From sequence record PZ386947.1: a stretch of 64,000 nucleotides of DNA. One strand, written 5' to 3'. This DNA comes from a phage. Below the pieces are notes generated by a model. The model saw only the letters and a program-made list of their open reading frames with translations. It made no database searches and was not told where the DNA came from. Both the position numbers and the translations under genes were made by a program. Each line of letters begins with the position of its first letter. The stretch's first letter is position 1. Positions 590 through 31,266 of this stretch are shown piece after piece.

Positions 590-3286
590 TCAGCCAAACA
601 GGAAGTCTAACGAAGCTTTTTCTTCATAGTCCATACCAGCCGATTCACACATACCCGCAAGCGGTTTAACAAACGATTTTTGGAACAAAGTTGAGTAGTC
701 AATCCAAGATAGTACATCAGAACGAATTTCTTTTGGAAGTTCTGTACCCGATGGCCAAGCAATGCACTTATCACCAAACGGATTTCCTTCACGTAATGGA
801 AGAACCATTACTTTATTTCCATCCAAAATTGGAGCTACACCCAGACCACTAACAGCTCGACGATAAGTTAGCACACCACGAATATGGAACGGGCATTTAA
901 ATCCTGGCCAACCTTTATCATCATATTTCGCTATATCGTTCGCAGTTTTTACTTCAGCAATAACTTTATAGTCAAGTTGACGATATTCTTTCTCGAAGTT
1001 CTTGTAATATTCTTGGACAGACTCTTCGCCTTCCTGAAGAATACGACGAATACTTTCTTCGAGAGCTTCTTGGACCGCTTTAGGCGTTGAACTCTGCTGA
1101 GTTTCCATACCCATGATTTTTAGATGTGGTTCAGCAAAACGCTTATCTTCCATATCATAAACGTTCAGAGCATAACGCTTTTTCGCTTTCCAAAATCCAC
1201 CAACACCCTTTGAACCAAGTGGAGGGCAAGAAATAGCTTCACGGTCCATATGCATCAGATGCTCGCGGTTATTCATATAATCACATAACTCACGATATGC
1301 AACATCAATCATAGGTTCCATCTTTTTCTTACCGAACTGATTCATGAATTCAACTAAATCGTTCTGCTCTTTGAATCGGTCAAGACCAACTTTTTCAATA
1401 ACTTTATCTACACAAACATATACAGAATCAGTATCACCCGCTGCGATGAAATCTTCGCCATTAGTTCCACACACCTTATTCAGGTATTCATTAATTTTAC
1501 GAGCAATCCACTGAATACCAACTTGACCAAAAATTGTGATAGCAGTAGCATTTCGCAAATCATAGTAACGGAAATGAATATTACCAAGAGCACCATAAAG
1601 ACTGTTGATAAGAATTTTACGGTTTAGCTGATTTGTGTTAGCAAGTGTAGCTGCTTTTTCACATTCTTCGATCAGACTATTAAGAACAGATTCGGTGTAA
1701 TTCGATAATTCATTTAAGAAATCATCACTGAACTTAACATATCGTTCAACTTCTGGTTTAGTTGAGCGAGACCCTGCACCTTTCATAATAATCTTTTTAA
1801 TAGCTTCGGCATTCATTTCTTCGGCGAACATTTTCTTTTTCCAATCTTTACGTTGGAAAAATACTTTAGCGATTTCCTTTGGAATGATACCTTCTTGATG
1901 CTTATCATACATCCATCCATTCGGAGAACAAGAATATTCATCACTTGGCTTAGGAGCTGTTCCTGCGATATATTCATGAATTGGATGAACTTTAAACTGA
2001 CCACGAATAGTCTCAGGACTAATGTTAACCTGACGAATAATGCTAGGATACAGAGACGTCAAGTCAAAACTCATAATGTATCGACGAGCAATCGGTTTAG
2101 GTTCAAATACAAATGCACCTGGAAAACTTTGTTTAACGTGCGAACCTTGTTGAGGAATAACCTTATGTTCACCTTTCAACGAGTTAAAAATAATAGCATC
2201 CCAAGTTTTAATAGGACTCATTACACCAGAAAAAGGCATTTTAGCATAATAAGACATACTTAAAACTAGATCGATAAACCCACGAATTTTATCAATTGCT
2301 TGAACTGATTCTACGTCAATGATGTTATAACTAATGTATCGTTGATGATTAGTCTCACGAAGTTTATTAATAGGACCGTCGTATGGCAATTTACCTTTTT
2401 TGGTTTCATGTTGAGCAACTGATTCCAAAGAGAATGATGGCAAATTAGTAAATGCGAATTTCTTGTACAAATCTAAATAATCAAGAATAGATACGCCATC
2501 AATAGAATAAATTTCTTTGCTACCGTACATATTTTGAATTAGTTTAGATTTTACTCGACCGATTGGAGAGAAGCGTTTCATACTGCGTTCGCCCAGAACC
2601 ATTTTAACACGATTCATGATATACGGAACGTCAAATCCCTCAATATTCCAGCCGGTAAAAATAGCAGGTCTTTTCTGTTCCCAGAGATTAATATATTCCA
2701 TGAGCATATCACGCTCATTATCAAATGGCATATAAATTACTCGGTCAAGAATTTCTTGAGGAACTTCATCACCACCTTCACAGTCAAGTTTAGCAGCTAA
2801 CTTTGCATCCCATTTTGATACTGAACCGTACATTGAATTCAACAAATCAAAGACGTAAAAACGGTCGTCAATTGAATCATAATGAGTGATAGCATCAATT
2901 TCATATTCTGCTTTCATTGGGTCAGGAAATTTATCACCAGTAACCTCAATGTCACAGTTAGCTACACGAACAAATTTTCGGTCATAAACAATTTCTGAAC
3001 CATATGTATCACTGATATAAGCGAGTTTAAAATCGTTCATACCGAGAGCTTCGAGACCGATGTCTTCCATTCGCTTCATCCAATCTCGAGCATCTTTCAT
3101 TGATGGAAATTTTTGAGGAGCGCAGTTTTTACCATAGATGTCTTTGTATTTTGACTCTTCCTTACAATGCCTAAACATAGTTGGAAGATATTCTACTTCA
3201 CGAGTACGTTCCTTTCCGTTTTCATCAATATAACGTTCAACAATGTTATTTCCGACTGTTTCAATAGAGATATAAAATTCTTTCAT
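590..3286 (-). CDS. 43: DNA polymerase gp43 (family B, with 3'-5' exonuclease)
   Basis: 898 aa ORF; N-terminus MKEFYISIETVGNNIVERYIDENGKER..., exo motif FDIEV, polymerase motifs SLYPSII and YGDTDS; same length as T4 gp43. Confidence 0.97.
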   Translation of the reverse strand: MKEFYISIETVGNNIVERYIDENGKERTREVEYLPTMFRHCKEESKYKDIYGKNCAPQKFPSMKDARDWMKRMEDIGLEALGMNDFKLAYISDTYGSEIVYDRKFVRVANCDIEVTGDKFPDPMKAEYEIDAITHYDSIDDRFYVFDLLNSMYGSVSKWDAKLAAKLDCEGGDEVPQEILDRVIYMPFDNERDMLMEYINLWEQKRPAIFTGWNIEGFDVPYIMNRVKMVLGERSMKRFSPIGRVKSKLIQNMYGSKEIYSIDGVSILDYLDLYKKFAFTNLPSFSLESVAQHETKKGKLPYDGPINKLRETNHQRYISYNIIDVESVQAIDKIRGFIDLVLSMSYYAKMPFSGVMSPIKTWDAIIFNSLKGEHKVIPQQGSHVKQSFPGAFVFEPKPIARRYIMSFDLTSLYPSIIRQVNISPETIRGQFKVHPIHEYIAGTAPKPSDEYSCSPNGWMYDKHQEGIIPKEIAKVFFQRKDWKKKMFAEEMNAEAIKKIIMKGAGSRSTKPEVERYVKFSDDFLNELSNYTESVLNSLIEECEKAATLANTNQLNRKILINSLYGALGNIHFRYYDLRNATAITIFGQVGIQWIARKINEYLNKVCGTNGEDFIAAGDTDSVYVCVDKVIEKVGLDRFKEQNDLVEFMNQFGKKKMEPMIDVAYRELCDYMNNREHLMHMDREAISCPPLGSKGVGGFWKAKKRYALNVYDMEDKRFAEPHLKIMGMETQQSSTPKAVQEALEESIRRILQEGEESVQEYYKNFEKEYRQLDYKVIAEVKTANDIAKYDDKGWPGFKCPFHIRGVLTYRRAVSGLGVAPILDGNKVMVLPLREGNPFGDKCIAWPSGTELPKEIRSDVLSWIDYSTLFQKSFVKPLAGMCESAGMDYEEKASLDFLFG

Positions 3287-3304
3287 AGATATTCCTTAGT
3301 TTAT

Positions 3305-3324
3305 AGCCCGAGTTATTAGGCTCT
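3305..3324 (-). promoter_or_regulatory. putative gp43 translational operator hairpin
   Basis: Minus-strand RNA AGCC-UAAUAACUC-GGGCU a few nt upstream of the gene 43 RBS region; resembles the T4 gp43 autoregulatory operator as I recall it. Confidence 0.5.
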
Positions 3325-3344
3325 TGATATATTATACTCCAATT

Positions 3345-3362
3345 AAGGGGCCGAAGCCCCTT
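3345..3362 (-). terminator. GC-rich intercistronic stem-loop (AAGGGGC-CGAA-GCCCCTT)
   Basis: Perfect hairpin with CGAA loop between regA and gene 43; no clear U-tract, so possibly a stability or partial terminator element. Confidence 0.45.
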
Positions 3363-3364
3363 GC

Positions 3365-3733
3365 TTAATTACCAATCGTATATTTAGGAACGAGTTTCCA
3401 TTCATGTTTTTGTTTAAAAGAAATAACTCGGAAGTTATTAGTTAAATCTTTCATAAAAGTTCTTTGACCAGGAACGATTTCAATCAGTCCCCAATCTTCT
3501 AACAACCATGCAATCGAATCACGACGAACTTCATCTTCTTCTGTCATTTCAACCTGGCGACCATCCATACGAAGCATTTCTTTAAAATGAACGATATAGT
3601 ATAGTCCTTTTTTCTGAAGAATATGACAGGACTGATACAGAACTTTATCTTTATTATTAGCAATTCCCATACGAGTCAAAGTTTCTTTTACTTTCAGAAA
3701 ATCTTCAGGTTTTTTAAGAGTAATTTCAATCAT
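3365..3733 (-). CDS. regA: translational repressor RegA
   Basis: 122 aa; MIEITLKKPEDFLKVKETLTRMGIANNKDKVLYQSCHILQKKGLYYIVHFKEM... matches T4 RegA in sequence and position after gene 62. Confidence 0.95.
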   Translation of the reverse strand: MIEITLKKPEDFLKVKETLTRMGIANNKDKVLYQSCHILQKKGLYYIVHFKEMLRMDGRQVEMTEEDEVRRDSIAWLLEDWGLIEIVPGQRTFMKDLTNNFRVISFKQKHEWKLVPKYTIGN

Positions 3734-26564: not shown

Positions 26565-27551
26565 TTATTTCAGAAGAGTAACCTCAGCGATTTCTTCCCA
26601 ACCGTTTTTGTCGGTCATAATAAAGTCAGCAAGATAAAGAGCAGTACGCAGTGAAACATTGCGTAAACGATTAACATTGACTTTCATCCATGATAATGCT
26701 TTATAAGTTTCTTCATCAGAAAGACCGCGCTTTTGCATCATGTCAGTTGAAAGAATAACATCTTCAACCCTGACCATAATTTCTTCATTAGTGTGAACAC
26801 CCAAATCTAAATAAACTGAGCGGGACACTAATGCTTGTAAATGTGGAGCAAGTTTAGTACCACGGTCTAATTCGCGGTCAATATCAACGTTTGTGATAAA
26901 AACAATCGTTCCTTTAAATTCAAACTCACGCTCAATGCCTTTTTCTTCTAAGTAAGAAGATGCAGTGCTCCAGCAGACTTTACGGGTCTCTCCGGTGTCC
27001 AGAGCAGCTTTCAGAAGATTAAGAATGTCCATATCAGAGAAAACATCCACATCATCAATCAAAAGGACAGAATTCTCTTCACGATTATTCCAAAGCTGTT
27101 CATAAAGACCGATACCAGAGATTTTACCATTAATGCTTTTATACTCAATGTATCCAATATCATTTGCTTTATTTAAAGCTTTATCTAAAGAATACGTTTT
27201 ACCAATACCTGCTGCTCCCGAGATAATTAATGAACGAATGTTTCCGTTAATAATACCATTCGTCATCATTCCCATAACATTAAATCTTTTATTAATGCGG
27301 GTTTTCATATCTTCATACGATTCTTTAACTTCTTCAACTTTTACACCATCATATGAAATGTCTGATTTGTAAACCCAAACACCGCGACGTTTACCGTCAA
27401 TTTCAACAAAAACTTTACCATCTCCTTGTGCATCTACCGGAGCATTATCTGGGAACCATTCGCCTAAGAGCTCAAAAGTTCCAGAGATTTCTTTACCGAA
27501 GTAGATACCCTTATTGATAGTTACAGTTTTCATTTTGTTCTCCAATTTCAC
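26565..27551 (-). CDS. P-loop ATPase (AAA-like)
   Basis: 328 aa; Walker A SGAAGIGKTYS and Walker B VLLIDDVD. Confidence 0.65.
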   Translation of the reverse strand: MKLENKMKTVTINKGIYFGKEISGTFELLGEWFPDNAPVDAQGDGKVFVEIDGKRRGVWVYKSDISYDGVKVEEVKESYEDMKTRINKRFNVMGMMTNGIINGNIRSLIISGAAGIGKTYSLDKALNKANDIGYIEYKSINGKISGIGLYEQLWNNREENSVLLIDDVDVFSDMDILNLLKAALDTGETRKVCWSTASSYLEEKGIEREFEFKGTIVFITNVDIDRELDRGTKLAPHLQALVSRSVYLDLGVHTNEEIMVRVEDVILSTDMMQKRGLSDEETYKALSWMKVNVNRLRNVSLRTALYLADFIMTDKNGWEEIAEVTLLK

Positions 27552-27602: not shown

Positions 27603-27866
27603 TTATTTTAATGTTTGCCAAATTTTTACTGCTTCACGACGAGATACTTCTACAGCTCCAAGTTCTACAGCTTTTTGGCGTCGCCGAGCGTGTAAGTCAT
27701 AATGTTTAATGCGTTTATCTTGAAACCAAGAACGTTTCATTCCTATTGCTTCTGCCATTTCATGAAGCTCTTCAATATCTCCATCAGTGAACATATGACA
27801 ATTTTTAGTTGGATGACCGCGAAGTTTCCATCCATGATTCATTAAAACATCTACGTAAACTGTCAT
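27603..27866 (-). CDS. hypothetical protein
   Basis: 87 aa ORF MTVYVDVLMNHGW... Confidence 0.5.
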   Translation of the reverse strand: MTVYVDVLMNHGWKLRGHPTKNCHMFTDGDIEELHEMAEAIGMKRSWFQDKRIKHYDLHARRRQKAVELGAVEVSRREAVKIWQTLK

Positions 27867-28012
27867 TGATTCTTCTCCAAATAAGTTTCGATAATTTTCT
27901 GAGCGAGATAAACTGCATTATCTTCAGTTGCATCTTCTAAGAAACTTTCAAAACACTCTGAAATTTCTTCTGTGTCAATCAACTTTTTTACTTCAATTGG
28001 TGTAATTTTCAT
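27863..28012 (-). CDS. hypothetical small acidic protein
   Basis: ORF track 27863..28081; trimmed to MKITPIEV because the upstream part translates the promoter element. Confidence 0.4.
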   Translation of the reverse strand: MKITPIEVKKLIDTEEISECFESFLEDATEDNAVYLAQKIIETYLEKNQ

Positions 28013-28049
28013 TTTGTTTTTCCGTTTAAGTGTTTGTTTTGATAGTTGT

Positions 28050-28078
28050 ATAGTACCATAAAGCTTTATGCTTGTAAA
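28050..28078 (-). promoter_or_regulatory. T4-type early promoter
   Basis: Minus strand TTTACA, 17 nt, TACTAT. Confidence 0.65.
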
Positions 28079-28109
28079 CAATTTTGTGAAAAATTTTTGA
28101 AATAAAAAA

Positions 28110-28127
28110 GGGAGCCCGAAGGCTCCC
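28110..28127 (-). terminator. rho-independent terminator
   Basis: Hairpin GGGAGCC-CGAA-GGCTCCC followed on the minus strand by TTTTTTATTT, directly after the 28130..29176 stop. Confidence 0.7.
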
Positions 28128-28129
28128 TA

Positions 28130-29176
28130 TCATTTATAATAACTTCGGTGGTTTTCAAGATAAACCCTCTCAAGGAAGTCATCCCAAAAACCCATGTCTA
28201 CTTTTTGCTGCATACCGTTCTTAGAAGCTTCAGTAGATGCTGCTTCTACTTGATCGACCACATCTTCCAAAAACTCTTGAACCGTTTTAAATGGATGTTT
28301 ACCCAACTTCACGTCGAGAATAAATGGAGCATCTTGGAGTGGATAAACCAAGTCACCAGTTTTGTAAATTTCCAATAGTTGGAGTCCACCACGGCAAGCA
28401 TGACTCATAGCTTTCCAGTCAATACCTTCATTGGCTTCGGCCTTACGAGCACGTTCACCGTATTCAGCATCTAATTTGTTCAGTGACTGCTTAAGCTCAA
28501 TAAGAGAAAGCGTTGTCTGATATTTACGACCCAACACTGTGTAAAACGTCTGTGGGCCTGTTTTCTCATGATTATGGAACACCCATTCACAGAATTCGTT
28601 TTCTGGAAGACGATGCTTAATATCTTCAACTTTAGTACGACGCTGCTTAATGGAACCGTCTTCTTGGTAATCAACCCATTGCTCAGGGATTTGATTAACT
28701 ACTTTCAATACATCGCGTAATGCAGCCAAACGAGAACCCTTAACGCCGTATTTAGAAGCTTGCTTACGGACATATCCTAAATAGGATTTCATGTTAGTCG
28801 TATAAAAACGAGAACGGTTGTCTTGAATAAACTTCCACACATCAGGCAAATCAGATTTAACCACTAACTCAGGTGGAGTGTGAAGCATATCTAACGCTAC
28901 AGTTTCACCATCTGCTGCTAATTTAAAGAAATATTTAAGACTATACAATTCGTGGTCAATATCATCTTTAGTGTTTTTAGATGATGTGTTGTTAGTGTTT
29001 TTACTCATATGCTCTTTAACATTTCCGATAAGAATATCGCGAGCAGGAGGAACAAAAATTTCTTTAAAATCTACATCAGATTCTGGAGTAGAAGTTCCAT
29101 AAAGATGACTACCAAAATAAGACTTAACTACAGTTTTCATTATTAGACCTTTCATAATCTTCATTAAATTGTACAA
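28130..29176 (-). CDS. predicted nucleotidyltransferase (pol-beta-like NTase fold)
   Basis: 348 aa; N-terminal motif YFGSHLYGTSTPESDVDF fits the G[GS]x9-13 DxD NTase signature. Start uncertain (M1, M5 or M13). Confidence 0.65.
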   Translation of the reverse strand: MYNLMKIMKGLIMKTVVKSYFGSHLYGTSTPESDVDFKEIFVPPARDILIGNVKEHMSKNTNNTSSKNTKDDIDHELYSLKYFFKLAADGETVALDMLHTPPELVVKSDLPDVWKFIQDNRSRFYTTNMKSYLGYVRKQASKYGVKGSRLAALRDVLKVVNQIPEQWVDYQEDGSIKQRRTKVEDIKHRLPENEFCEWVFHNHEKTGPQTFYTVLGRKYQTTLSLIELKQSLNKLDAEYGERARKAEANEGIDWKAMSHACRGGLQLLEIYKTGDLVYPLQDAPFILDVKLGKHPFKTVQEFLEDVVDQVEAASTEASKNGMQQKVDMGFWDDFLERVYLENHRSYYK

Positions 29177-29903
29177 TCAATCGATGATAATTAGATTTTG
29201 GATATCCTAATTTACTTATATAAGTTCCGAATGACCCACGTTTAGGTCTATTTAATTTAATCCATAACTTATAAAGTAAGTCATAGTCTTGCCAATGTTT
29301 ACCAGTTCTTTGTCTAATTTTAGATGAATTTGATTGTTTCTTTTTAGTTTCAAAATTATTCAAAGATTTTTTGACTGCAGCAGAGTGTTTTTCTTTAACT
29401 CCCGGTCGTTTAAAAGCAGCTTTCACCCCTTTAGATATTTTTTCTTTAACTTCCGGTTTGTTTTGTGCTTCTAACTGGGATTCTGAAATTTTAGCCCTTA
29501 TTTCAGGAAGACTTAATGTTATCGAACGTTTTTCTCTGTATTCATTAGACTTCCACATTTCTTTCATTGTATTAGAATGTATTTTTGAAAATTTTTCTCT
29601 AACTAACTGATATCCTCTTGAAGTTAATTTGAGATTTCTTCCTAAAGAATCTTCTCCAAAATTATAAAATGACCACCATGCATAAATTAATCCAGGCGAA
29701 TTATAATGAATTTTAGCTAAAAGCCAATGGGCTATAAAATGCTCTCTAGCTGTTAATAAAACTAGATTATCAGAATCATCATTACCACCAATACAAGATG
29801 GAATAATATGATGCTTTTCCGTATAAAAATTTAATTTAGATTTATCTAATTTTCTGAGTTTTCCTTTCTTAATTAAATTATTATATACTTTAGTATAATT
29901 CAT
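29124..29903 (-). CDS. HNH homing endonuclease, MobD-like, with NUMOD-like repeats
   Basis: 259 aa; EKHHIIPSCIGG...NLVLLTAREHFIAHWLLAK; repeated basic motifs; position matches T4 mobD after the nrdC cluster. Confidence 0.85.
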   Translation of the reverse strand: MNYTKVYNNLIKKGKLRKLDKSKLNFYTEKHHIIPSCIGGNDDSDNLVLLTAREHFIAHWLLAKIHYNSPGLIYAWWSFYNFGEDSLGRNLKLTSRGYQLVREKFSKIHSNTMKEMWKSNEYREKRSITLSLPEIRAKISESQLEAQNKPEVKEKISKGVKAAFKRPGVKEKHSAAVKKSLNNFETKKKQSNSSKIRQRTGKHWQDYDLLYKLWIKLNRPKRGSFGTYISKLGYPKSNYHRLIVQFNEDYERSNNENCS

Positions 29904-29977: not shown

Positions 29978-30535
29978 TCACTTTGAAATCATAGTTGGAA
30001 TGACAGAATCAAGATAAGTCTTTAGTGCAATAGCTTCGTCTTTGGTAAATGTGACAATATGTGCTCGAAAATCATCAATTTGACGAATAGTTAAGACATC
30101 TCCATCTTCATAACATTTTGATACGTTTAAAACAGTTTCATCATTCTGATTGCAAGCGTTAGTAATAATAGCATTGCAATTTTTAAACCATTTTAAACTA
30201 TGTTTTCTTTCATTAGAATAATAAAAATATTTAATCTTATCTATAAAACTATCCCAATGGATAACTGATAAACACATTGACTCACTTTTAATATTAAATC
30301 CTGGGCATGAAGAATAAAAATGAATTTTGTGCTCATCATTGATGCTTACTATTTTATCAGTATAAGGATATTCAATTTGGGTTAAATGAATGATTTCACT
30401 AGGCGTAAAATATAGCATATCGTCTTCTTGTGTCAAACGATACATATTATTTACTTTTTCTATAGCTAATTCACCAAAAAGCGGACTAACTTCTAATACT
30501 AATCGTTTCATATTGATTCTCTTCGACTCACTCAC
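29978..30535 (-). CDS. hypothetical protein
   Basis: 185 aa ORF. Confidence 0.55.
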   Translation of the reverse strand: MSESKRINMKRLVLEVSPLFGELAIEKVNNMYRLTQEDDMLYFTPSEIIHLTQIEYPYTDKIVSINDEHKIHFYSSCPGFNIKSESMCLSVIHWDSFIDKIKYFYYSNERKHSLKWFKNCNAIITNACNQNDETVLNVSKCYEDGDVLTIRQIDDFRAHIVTFTKDEAIALKTYLDSVIPTMISK

Positions 30536-31062: not shown

Positions 31063-31266
31063 TTACACTCTCGTATTATGATCGATAATTTCATCAAGAA
31101 ACATATCTAACGCTTCTATAGCATTATCCACTTTAGTTTCAAAGTCTTTAATGCCTTTATTCGAAATACCCGATGAATACCAAGCAAAGTCAATCAGCTC
31201 TTCATCTGCTTTACGAATTGAAGCCACTAATTCCTTGATTTTATCTGCTTGCTCTATACTAATCAT
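31063..31266 (-). CDS. hypothetical protein
   Basis: ORF track 31063..31302; trimmed to [11 protein letters not shown]. Confidence 0.45.
   Translation of the reverse strand: MISIEQADKIKELVASIRKADEELIDFAWYSSGISNKGIKDFETKVDNAIEALDMFLDEIIDHNTRV

Follow-up and report, generated by a model that had tools for sequence, protein, structure and literature searches.

The NrdC.11 nucleotidyltransferase of a T4-like phage: a divergent RlaP-family protein with a possible part in RNA repair

Which nucleotidyltransferase (NTase) is encoded next to the homing-endonuclease gene mobD in T4-like phages, and what might it do during infection? The gene in question lies at 28130–29140 on the minus strand (stop codon included) of a 64-kb stretch of phage DNA (sequence record PZ386947.1), the whole of which is called the window here. 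The window is 100% identical to the DNA of the Shigella phage CM8 (NC_054939.1/MK962750.1; Tequatrovirus) and, where the two genomes share sequence, about 98% identical to that of T4. In T4 the ortholog of the gene is nrdC.11: the DNA is about 98% identical to T4 across nrdC.11, and the gene is placed between mobD and nrdC.10, as nrdC.11 is in T4. Its product is very probably an NTase of the RlaP family (RNA ligase-associating Pol-beta NTases), of which it would represent a divergent long form as judged from the sequence. The best overall explanation of its role, which we hold with modest confidence, is an RlaP-type refilling of RNA 3' ends that complements the phage enzymes Pnkp, Rnl1 and Rnl2.

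Gene identity, start and catalytic residues

A preliminary description of the window had called the protein a Pol-beta-type NTase on account of a GS...D-x-D signature near its N-terminus, and both the signature and the call are borne out. In Pfam, the single significant family is PF10127 ('RlaP, RNA repair pathway DNA polymerase beta family'; E = 3e-11, 43.9 bits, with a gathering threshold of 23), the match being confined to residues 7–134 (profile positions 24–142 of 249). PHROG 388 ('nucleotidyltransferase') is matched end to end (4.6e-136), and the best structural neighbours are NTases, with no solved structure close to the protein. The signature motif, YFGSHLYGTSTPESDVDF, is encoded at 29066–29119 (minus strand) and holds the G10-S11 NTP-binding turn and the predicted metal ligands D22-x-D24. 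The predicted third catalytic carboxylate, D62, lies in the strand formed by residues 61–67 (codon at 28955–28957, minus strand). We aligned 86 diverse sequences of the clade (34–84% identity to the query), all 86 of which match PF10127 and no other family. The invariant residues in this alignment are G10, S11, S21, D22, D24, N56, D62, Y131, R230, K243, H247, R250, P267 and K278. The acidic triad (D22, D24 and D62) is thus intact and invariant among the relatives, and with it the full Pol-beta catalytic set, G-S, D-x-D and the third D.

The preliminary description had left the NTase subclass unassigned. This no longer stands, as the Pfam RlaP family and a 2025 preprint (bioRxiv, 30 December 2025; Carruthers, Fatma & Huang; PMC12776372) already place T4 NrdC.11 as an RlaP. 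Of the functions that it had listed for phage NTases, a tRNA or RNA modifier is favoured, and cGAS/DncV-like, MenT/AbiEii-like and CCA-adding enzymes are without support. Neither PADLOC nor NCBIfam gives a match for the protein. Membership of the CD-NTases (cGAS/DncV) finds no family or fold support. For MenT/AbiEii (DUF1814) there is no Pfam or PADLOC match, such enzymes are also missing from the structural neighbours, and the neighbours of the gene are mobD and a terminator, with no antitoxin-like partner. The CCA-adding/poly(A) polymerase family (PF01743) has no Pfam match either. Only the generic Pol-beta motif speaks for a cGAS/DncV-type cyclic (oligo)nucleotide synthase or for a CCA-adding enzyme serving the tRNA genes that T4-like phages carry. 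However, Pfam, PADLOC and NCBIfam return no CD-NTase, SMODS or PolyA_pol/CCA family, and no CD-NTase or CCA enzyme is found among the top fold matches, where for the CCA/poly(A) class only Cid1 appears, with a probability of at most 0.08. Moreover, some T4 tRNAs need the CCA-adding enzyme of the host for their maturation, an argument against T4 having one of its own. We therefore regard a cyclic-nucleotide synthase or CCA-adding enzyme as the least probable reading of all those considered here.

The open reading frame (ORF) first described, at 28130–29176 on the minus strand, is present in the ORF list with 348 codons from a TTG. The true start is almost certainly the ATG at 29140, and the product the 336-residue rather than the 348-residue form, because a Shine–Dalgarno-like AAAGG lies 7 nt 5' of this ATG (29148–29152, minus strand), the close homologs are 328–336 residues long and the distant relatives align from residues 1–4. 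The CM8 RefSeq coding sequence (CDS) has the same limits (28130..29140, 336 residues, YP_010075900.1, product 'nucleotidyltransferase'), and the assignment of this CDS to the NrdC.11 ortholog follows from the ORF list, RefSeq, synteny and translation. From the homolog and annotation starts, the 12-codon TTG extension (29141–29176, minus strand), which lies inside the mobD CDS, is probably untranslated as part of the NTase.

The ORF is a real conserved gene, far beyond chance, because 1,729 homologs are found at E <= 1e-3 in a 90%-clustered collection (the top cluster comprising 751 member sequences) and 3,411 representative clusters in a 50%-clustered library. In the latter, 826 reach E <= 1e-30, mostly at full length (310–350 residues), and at the DNA level the region is matched by 674 phage records. 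With T4 NrdC.11 itself (38.9 kDa, PHROG 388, encoded between nrdC and mobD) the protein shares orthology, a length of 336 residues and a protein cluster about 99% identical (the T2/T4 cluster P0001). A difference is a cassette of about 480 bp before nrdC.10 that CM8 has and T4 lacks, from which no functional difference is expected.

It should be noted that gene names have led to misannotation in this family. Many GenBank and UniRef homologs of NrdC.11 are labelled 'thioredoxin', after 'nrdC' (clusters P0001, P0004, P0005, P0008 and others), and one entry is labelled 'putative HNH homing endonuclease'.

Domain layout and relation to canonical RlaP

How far does the resemblance to the studied RlaPs extend? 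Aligned by hhalign, the 86-sequence clade and a set of 13 canonical (short) RlaPs match with 93.8% probability (E = 1.7e-7) over residues 2–138, at 16% identity. The register places G10/S11 on G27/S28, D22/D24 on D39/D41 and D62 on D72, which is invariant in the short RlaP paralogs. NrdC.11 thus shares with canonical RlaP the PF10127 family, the G-S/D-x-D/D set and an alignable NTase domain with the helices that follow it. It differs in that this identity of about 16% covers only some 130 residues, in being about 70–80 residues longer, and in its beta-sheet module and helical bundle, neither of which resembles the canonical C-terminal domain at a detectable level in sequence. In the PF10127 sequence-similarity network, T4NrdC.11 falls in cluster 5, 'of unknown function', whereas the studied enzymes are in cluster 1a (PMC12776372). 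The RlaP assignment accordingly rests on the NTase domain and the following helices; in sequence, the remainder is clade-specific.

The layout of the protein was modelled with AlphaFold2 from the 86-sequence alignment (mean predicted local distance difference test score 93.9, predicted TM-score 0.80). The model predicts an NTase fold joined to a helical domain, comprising an alpha/beta NTase part (about residues 1–95), helices (99–150), a beta-sheet module (about 154–208) and a helical bundle (213–335). The preliminary description had spoken of a large helical C-terminal region: the helical segments are indeed there in the model, but the beta-sheet module is interposed between them. The N-terminal Pol-beta NTase domain, supported by PF10127, hhalign and the model, corresponds to 28856–29140. 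Beyond it lies a basic helix, KSYLGYVRKQASKYGVKGSR (residues 118–137, 28730–28789), in which Y123, Q127, K130, Y131, K134, G135 and R137 are at least 85% conserved, and which, from this conservation, is a candidate NTP- or RNA-binding surface. The clade-specific beta-sheet module (residues about 151–210, 28511–28690) is drawn from the predicted strands 154–158, 164–168, 184–191, 195–202 and 205–208; its first hairpin (151–170) is variable or missing in many relatives (gap fraction 0.42–0.49). The C-terminal bundle (28136–28504), delimited from the predicted helices and the conservation profile, ends in a long helix (316–335). Within it lies DWKAxSHAxR (residues 241–250, 28391–28420), where conservation across the clade is highest and which holds the invariant K243, H247 and R250; R230 is also invariant. 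All of these elements are encoded on the minus strand. In the crystal structure of the P. fluorescens RlaP (PfRlaP), an N-terminal NTase domain and a C-terminal helical domain form a cleft, the final helix folding back against the NTase domain (PMC12776372).

We considered whether the long form could be a canonical RlaP carrying an insertion of about 95 residues, an idea prompted by the spacing K243-x3-H247-x2-R250, which equals K149-x3-Y153-x2-R156 of the short RlaPs. At the sequence level this found no support (hhalign probability 0.3%).

Sequence searches of the PDB with the protein, the 86-sequence profile and the short-RlaP profile gave nothing relevant. A comparison with predicted viral structures gave good matches to proteins labelled 'nucleotidyltransferases' from many myoviruses, jumbo phages and giant viruses. 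The structural comparisons bear on two other readings. ANT(4') and 3c18, LinB and AadA share with the model an N-terminal Pol-beta NTase domain followed by a helical substrate-binding domain, and NrdC.11 could in the same way act on something other than RNA, namely a small molecule, as kanamycin and lincosamide NTases do, or a protein, as in AMPylation by DrrA and GlnE, with its C-terminal domain binding the substrate. These matches are weak, however (TM-scores of 0.2–0.3), and reflect the common NTase core; Pfam is unanimous for RlaP, the neighbours of the cellular relatives (see below) serve RNA end healing and sealing rather than resistance or signalling, and protein and DNA are not modified by the RlaPs tested (PMC12776372). 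A non-RNA acceptor thus appears rather improbable.

The top structural match of the NrdC.11 model is HalB, the NTase of the Hailong defence system (PDB entries 9dbh and 9dbj), at a level expected between any NTases. On this basis the phage protein might be a HalB-like template-independent synthase, whose oligodeoxyadenylate, or a similar oligomer, would keep a Hailong-type DNA-gated channel closed or spoof another oligonucleotide-sensing defence. HalB is a protein-primed processive poly-dA synthase partnered with the HalA channel, whereas the tested RlaPs add one or two nucleotides and use no DNA acceptors. The match amounts to 15% identity, a TM-score of about 0.24–0.35 and an r.m.s.d. of 4.2 Å, as for any two NTases with a helical domain. 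There is no sequence-level link, not even a family-level match that would make the protein a member of the HalB family, and HalA-like neighbours were found in none of the 79 cellular loci described below, where the neighbours are instead RNA-repair genes. We consider this reading very improbable.

RNA-repair genes around cellular relatives and the proposed role

If the family does not by itself tell what the long form acts on, do its gene neighbourhoods? The NrdC.11 clade is not restricted to phages. When one genome for each prokaryotic species was scanned, 156 relatives came up, of which the best 80 loci were kept and 79 were usable. These full-length relatives (33–53% identity) come from Desulfobacterales, Nitrospirota, Alphaproteobacteria, Bacteroidota, archaea and other groups. 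Flanks of about 8 kb on each side were searched with crude ORF calls, so that the neighbour counts are approximate and probably lower bounds. A gene for RNA repair (Pnkp, Hen1, RtcB, RtcA, Ro60 or Rnl1) was found by Pfam or seed tblastn in the flanks of 15 of the 79 loci. Such genes are co-oriented with the NTase gene in 24 of 28 cases, and several abut or overlap it, Pnkp at L052 and L070 being examples. With repair genes numbering one or a few per genome, this is, by a rough reckoning, a very large enrichment.

In a Pfam census of the immediate neighbours (147 genes), PF10127 itself occurs 16 times, HD/HD_4 nine times, AAA_33 kinase and Metallophos three times each, and PNKP_ligase and RtcA twice each; at the second position (133 genes) there are three Hen1_L, two RtcB and two Ro60 vWA matches. 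For the neighbours, a check of cluster representatives bore out the identification of RtcB, Hen1, bacterial Pnkp (with kinase, phosphatase and ligase parts), Ro60-like and HD_4 proteins. The arrangements include Pnkp, long NTase, short RlaP (L052); Hen1 ... Pnkp, long NTase, short RlaP (L070); RtcB, RtcA-like, long NTase, short RlaP, Hen1 (L040); and Ro60 followed by the long NTase (L015). The association with ligases that gives RlaP its name therefore holds for the T4-type clade itself, and RNA ligase or end-healing genes lie nearby in cellular genomes for both the long and the canonical form. This signal emerged only after Pfam annotation and seed tblastn; clustering of the neighbours by BLAST alone gave no dominant partner family, the largest being present at no more than 10 of the 80 loci.

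A second feature of these loci is a canonical short RlaP gene (about 255–275 codons; best Pfam E = 5.9e-81) directly downstream of the long NTase gene on the same strand, in 21 of the 79 (L008, L011, L024, L026, L027, L035, L036, L040, L041, L052, L053, L057, L060, L064, L070, L072, L073, L075, L080, L081 and L082). The order is always long then short, often with 4-nt overlaps. These pairs receive no mention in the 2025 RlaP preprint (PMC12776372).

What is known of the short enzymes suggests an activity for the long one. The RlaPs of Pseudomonas fluorescens and P. aeruginosa, encoded in an rtcB–rlaP–rtcA operon, put one or two nucleoside monophosphates (NMPs), or dNMPs, on RNA 3'-OH ends, do not accept DNA or protein, favour Mn2+ and cleaved-tRNA mimics, and improve the aminoacylation of tRNA from which one anticodon-loop nucleotide had been lost ahead of ligation (PMC12776372). 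By analogy with these enzymes, NrdC.11 probably adds nucleotides to RNA 3' ends. Among the NTases of jumbo phages, RlaP is the most prevalent, and its occurrence there tracks the occurrence of RNA ligases (Iyer et al. 2021; PMC7824862); RlaP is also predicted to refill nucleotides lost to RloC-type nucleases before ligation (PMC7824862). The refilling idea goes back to 2016 (Burroughs & Aravind 2016, cited by PMC7824862 and PMC12776372).

CM8 has the partners that such a reaction would call for. It encodes Pnkp (gp183), Rnl1 (gp177, 'RNA ligase and tail fiber attachment catalyst') and Rnl2 (gp225, 'RNA ligase'), and a 3'-OH product fits Rnl1 and Rnl2, since both are 5'-phosphate ligases; the preprint contrasts such 3'-OH-compatible 5'-phosphate ligases with RtcB (PMC12776372). 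We propose that D22, D24 and D62 would hold two metal ions for catalysis, and that NrdC.11 would take NMPs from NTPs and attach one or two of them, without a template, to the 3'-OH of broken RNA, mainly of tRNA halves. The trigger would be a host anticodon nuclease that cuts a tRNA and removes a nucleotide, as RloC-type 'smart' ribotoxins do. Pnkp would then make the 3'-OH and 5'-P ends, NrdC.11 would restore the nucleotide and Rnl1 or Rnl2 would seal the break, the outcome being that a fraction of functional tRNA is regenerated during infection. The analysis establishes the identity of the gene, the family of the NTase domain, the intact catalytic triad, the operonic linkage to RNA repair in cellular genomes and the presence in the phage of Pnkp and two 5'-phosphate ligases, whereas the refilling chemistry is carried over from the Pseudomonas enzymes and the counter-defence role is inferred. 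That the role of NrdC.11 is counter-defence by tRNA repair is plausible, with a chance somewhat below even.

Several points weigh against the refilling explanation. When residues 212–336 and 141–235 are compared by hhalign with the short-RlaP profile, no similarity is found (probability 0.3%). The C-terminal ~200 residues, DWKAxSHAxR included, thus appear to be specific to the clade, and substrate specificity could differ, because only residues ~1–140 align with canonical RlaP. The adjacency of the long and short RlaPs in a fixed order in 21 of the 79 cellular loci suggests that the two are not redundant and represent two activities or a heteromer. On the phage side, Pnkp, Rnl1 and Rnl2 of CM8 lie 54–83 kb from nrdC.11, and Pnkp, Rnl1 or RtcB is found within 10 kb in only five of 78 viral loci, mostly T4-like. 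The dispensability of nrdC.11 in the laboratory fits an accessory role and is silent on which one. Finally, a full-text literature search returned no experimental study of NrdC.11 or its clade.

The same chemistry could also be turned to offence, with NrdC.11 extending the 3' ends of intact host RNA (for example tRNA acceptor ends, as MenT does) and thereby shutting off translation or marking the RNA for decay. Given total E. coli RNA, the Pseudomonas RlaPs label tRNAs and rRNAs of full length and discriminate little between NTPs (PMC12776372), and the phage gene is unlinked to repair genes and sits in an early accessory region with predicted early promoters nearby, all of which would suit such a role. 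Yet the clade lies within Pnkp/Hen1 and RtcB repair operons in cellular genomes, the protein matches PF10127 only, with no MenT/AbiEii or PADLOC match, no toxicity has been reported and the gene has no cognate antitoxin-like neighbour. An offensive role of this kind is therefore improbable.

How might the long and short forms divide the work? Their distinction suggests, for example, different acceptor ends, a different choice of nucleotide, or the restoration of specific nucleotides by a heteromer. A long form that differs in function from canonical RlaP and acts as its partner, and is not a mere divergent copy, is nevertheless an unlikely reading on present evidence. A short RlaP was found within 10 kb of an NrdC.11-type gene in none of the 78 viral contigs. 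Phage short RlaPs are confined to jumbo phages that infect Pseudomonas, Brevundimonas, Caulobacter and Burkholderia, with none in Escherichia phages. In T4-like phages the long form stands by itself, and the genes of its repair partners are scattered over the genome. Since these phages kept only the long form, its specificity could be adapted to the damage that enterobacterial anticodon nucleases inflict on tRNA.

RNA repair as a phage counter-defence was first exemplified by the T4 Pnkp/Rnl1 pathway. If refilling after RloC-type cleavage is correct, NrdC.11 would supply the third enzyme that this pathway has been missing, and would account for the ability of T4-like phages to withstand nucleases believed to overcome repair by healing and sealing alone; a long form with tuned specificity would likewise make the classic pathway a three-enzyme one. 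Pfam, RefSeq and the 2025 preprint between them already record the gene, identify it as an NTase and assign it to RlaP. Since the refilling idea is published and the gene stands in Pfam as RlaP, this is no new kind of system. What is added here is the corrected start and strand relation, the exclusion of the cGAS, MenT and CCA alternatives, and the finding that the T4-type long form itself sits in Pnkp/Hen1/RtcB operons and is frequently paired with a short RlaP.

Two further observations were made at the cellular loci. On a 4-kb contig of a Bathyarchaeota metagenome-assembled genome (L009), the NTase gene (80–994) shares its strand with two genes after it, one T4-Pnkp-like (~1370–2250, E = 6e-49) and one T4-Rnl1-like (~2820–3650, E = 2e-17). 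The three form a compact T4-type heal/refill/seal cluster; the contig may be viral. At other loci, small HD-domain phosphohydrolases of about 175 residues adjoin the NTase (HD_4 at L049, L050 and L078; HD at L016 and L083). HD and HD_4 are the second most frequent families among the immediate neighbours, and these proteins could be end-healing phosphoesterases or NTP-related partners.

The interval from mobD to nrdC.10

The preliminary description had placed the NTase gene upstream of a mobD-like endonuclease gene. In the direction of transcription it is downstream: mobD (29124–29903, minus strand; PHROG 655 at 1.3e-56, T4 annotation) precedes it, and the mobD stop (29124) and the NTase ATG overlap by 17 nt (29124–29140). 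MobD is a free-standing HNH homing endonuclease, whose gene is inserted between nrdC.11 and mobD.1 (PMC2988022). In the Yersinia phage fPS-90 (L163, 2771–4242), mobD is missing from this place and the NTase gene is kept, with another 'phage protein' gene ending at the NTase start. The locus fits a mobile insertion of mobD at the NTase junction, because of this arrangement in fPS-90 and the exact abutment of mobD and the NTase gene. mobD is thus context for the NTase gene and no functional partner.

The strong terminator reported 3' of the gene was recovered by the terminator scan as an 8-bp stem with six G-C pairs followed by TTTTTTATTT. This intrinsic terminator (28099–28128, minus strand; stem at 28128–28109, then the T-run) closes the mobD–nrdC.11 transcription unit. 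In fPS-90 the same element is annotated as a terminator, with a predicted early promoter after it. The interval had also been described as accessory, and this agrees with T4, in which nrdC.11–mobD.3 can be deleted without loss of viability (PMC9825161).

The cassette of about 480 bp that distinguishes CM8 from T4 occupies 27603–28081, between the nrdC.11 terminator and nrdC.10. It holds a DUF4031 gene (PF13223, E = 1e-21; 27603–27866), a small ORF of 49 residues (27863–28012) and a promoter-like site (28078–28050), all on the minus strand. It is present at 80% coverage or more in at least 159 T4-like phage records, and in fPS-90 it has its own predicted early promoter. Neither the DUF4031 protein nor NrdC.10 has a match in PADLOC or NCBIfam.

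Beyond the cassette, the nrdC.10 ortholog (26565–27551, minus strand), which adjoins nrdC.11 in T4, encodes a P-loop ATPase of 328 residues with the Walker A motif GAAGIGKT. Its AAA_14, AAA_22 and nSTAND3 matches are weak and below threshold, and PHROG 1250 lists it as 'unknown function'. The Pfam census of flanking genes revealed no conserved AAA partner adjacent to cellular NrdC.11-type genes.

On the other side, just upstream of mobD, the mobD.1 ortholog (29978–30535, minus strand) matches T4_y05I_N (2.7e-39) and T4_y05I_C (1.1e-20) and is a putative transcription factor ('y05I-like'). In the CM8 RefSeq record, the mobD.1 and mobD.4 orthologs (~29978–30511 and ~31063–31266) are mislabelled 'molybdopterin-guanine dinucleotide biosynthesis protein MobD', another case of misannotation from gene names.

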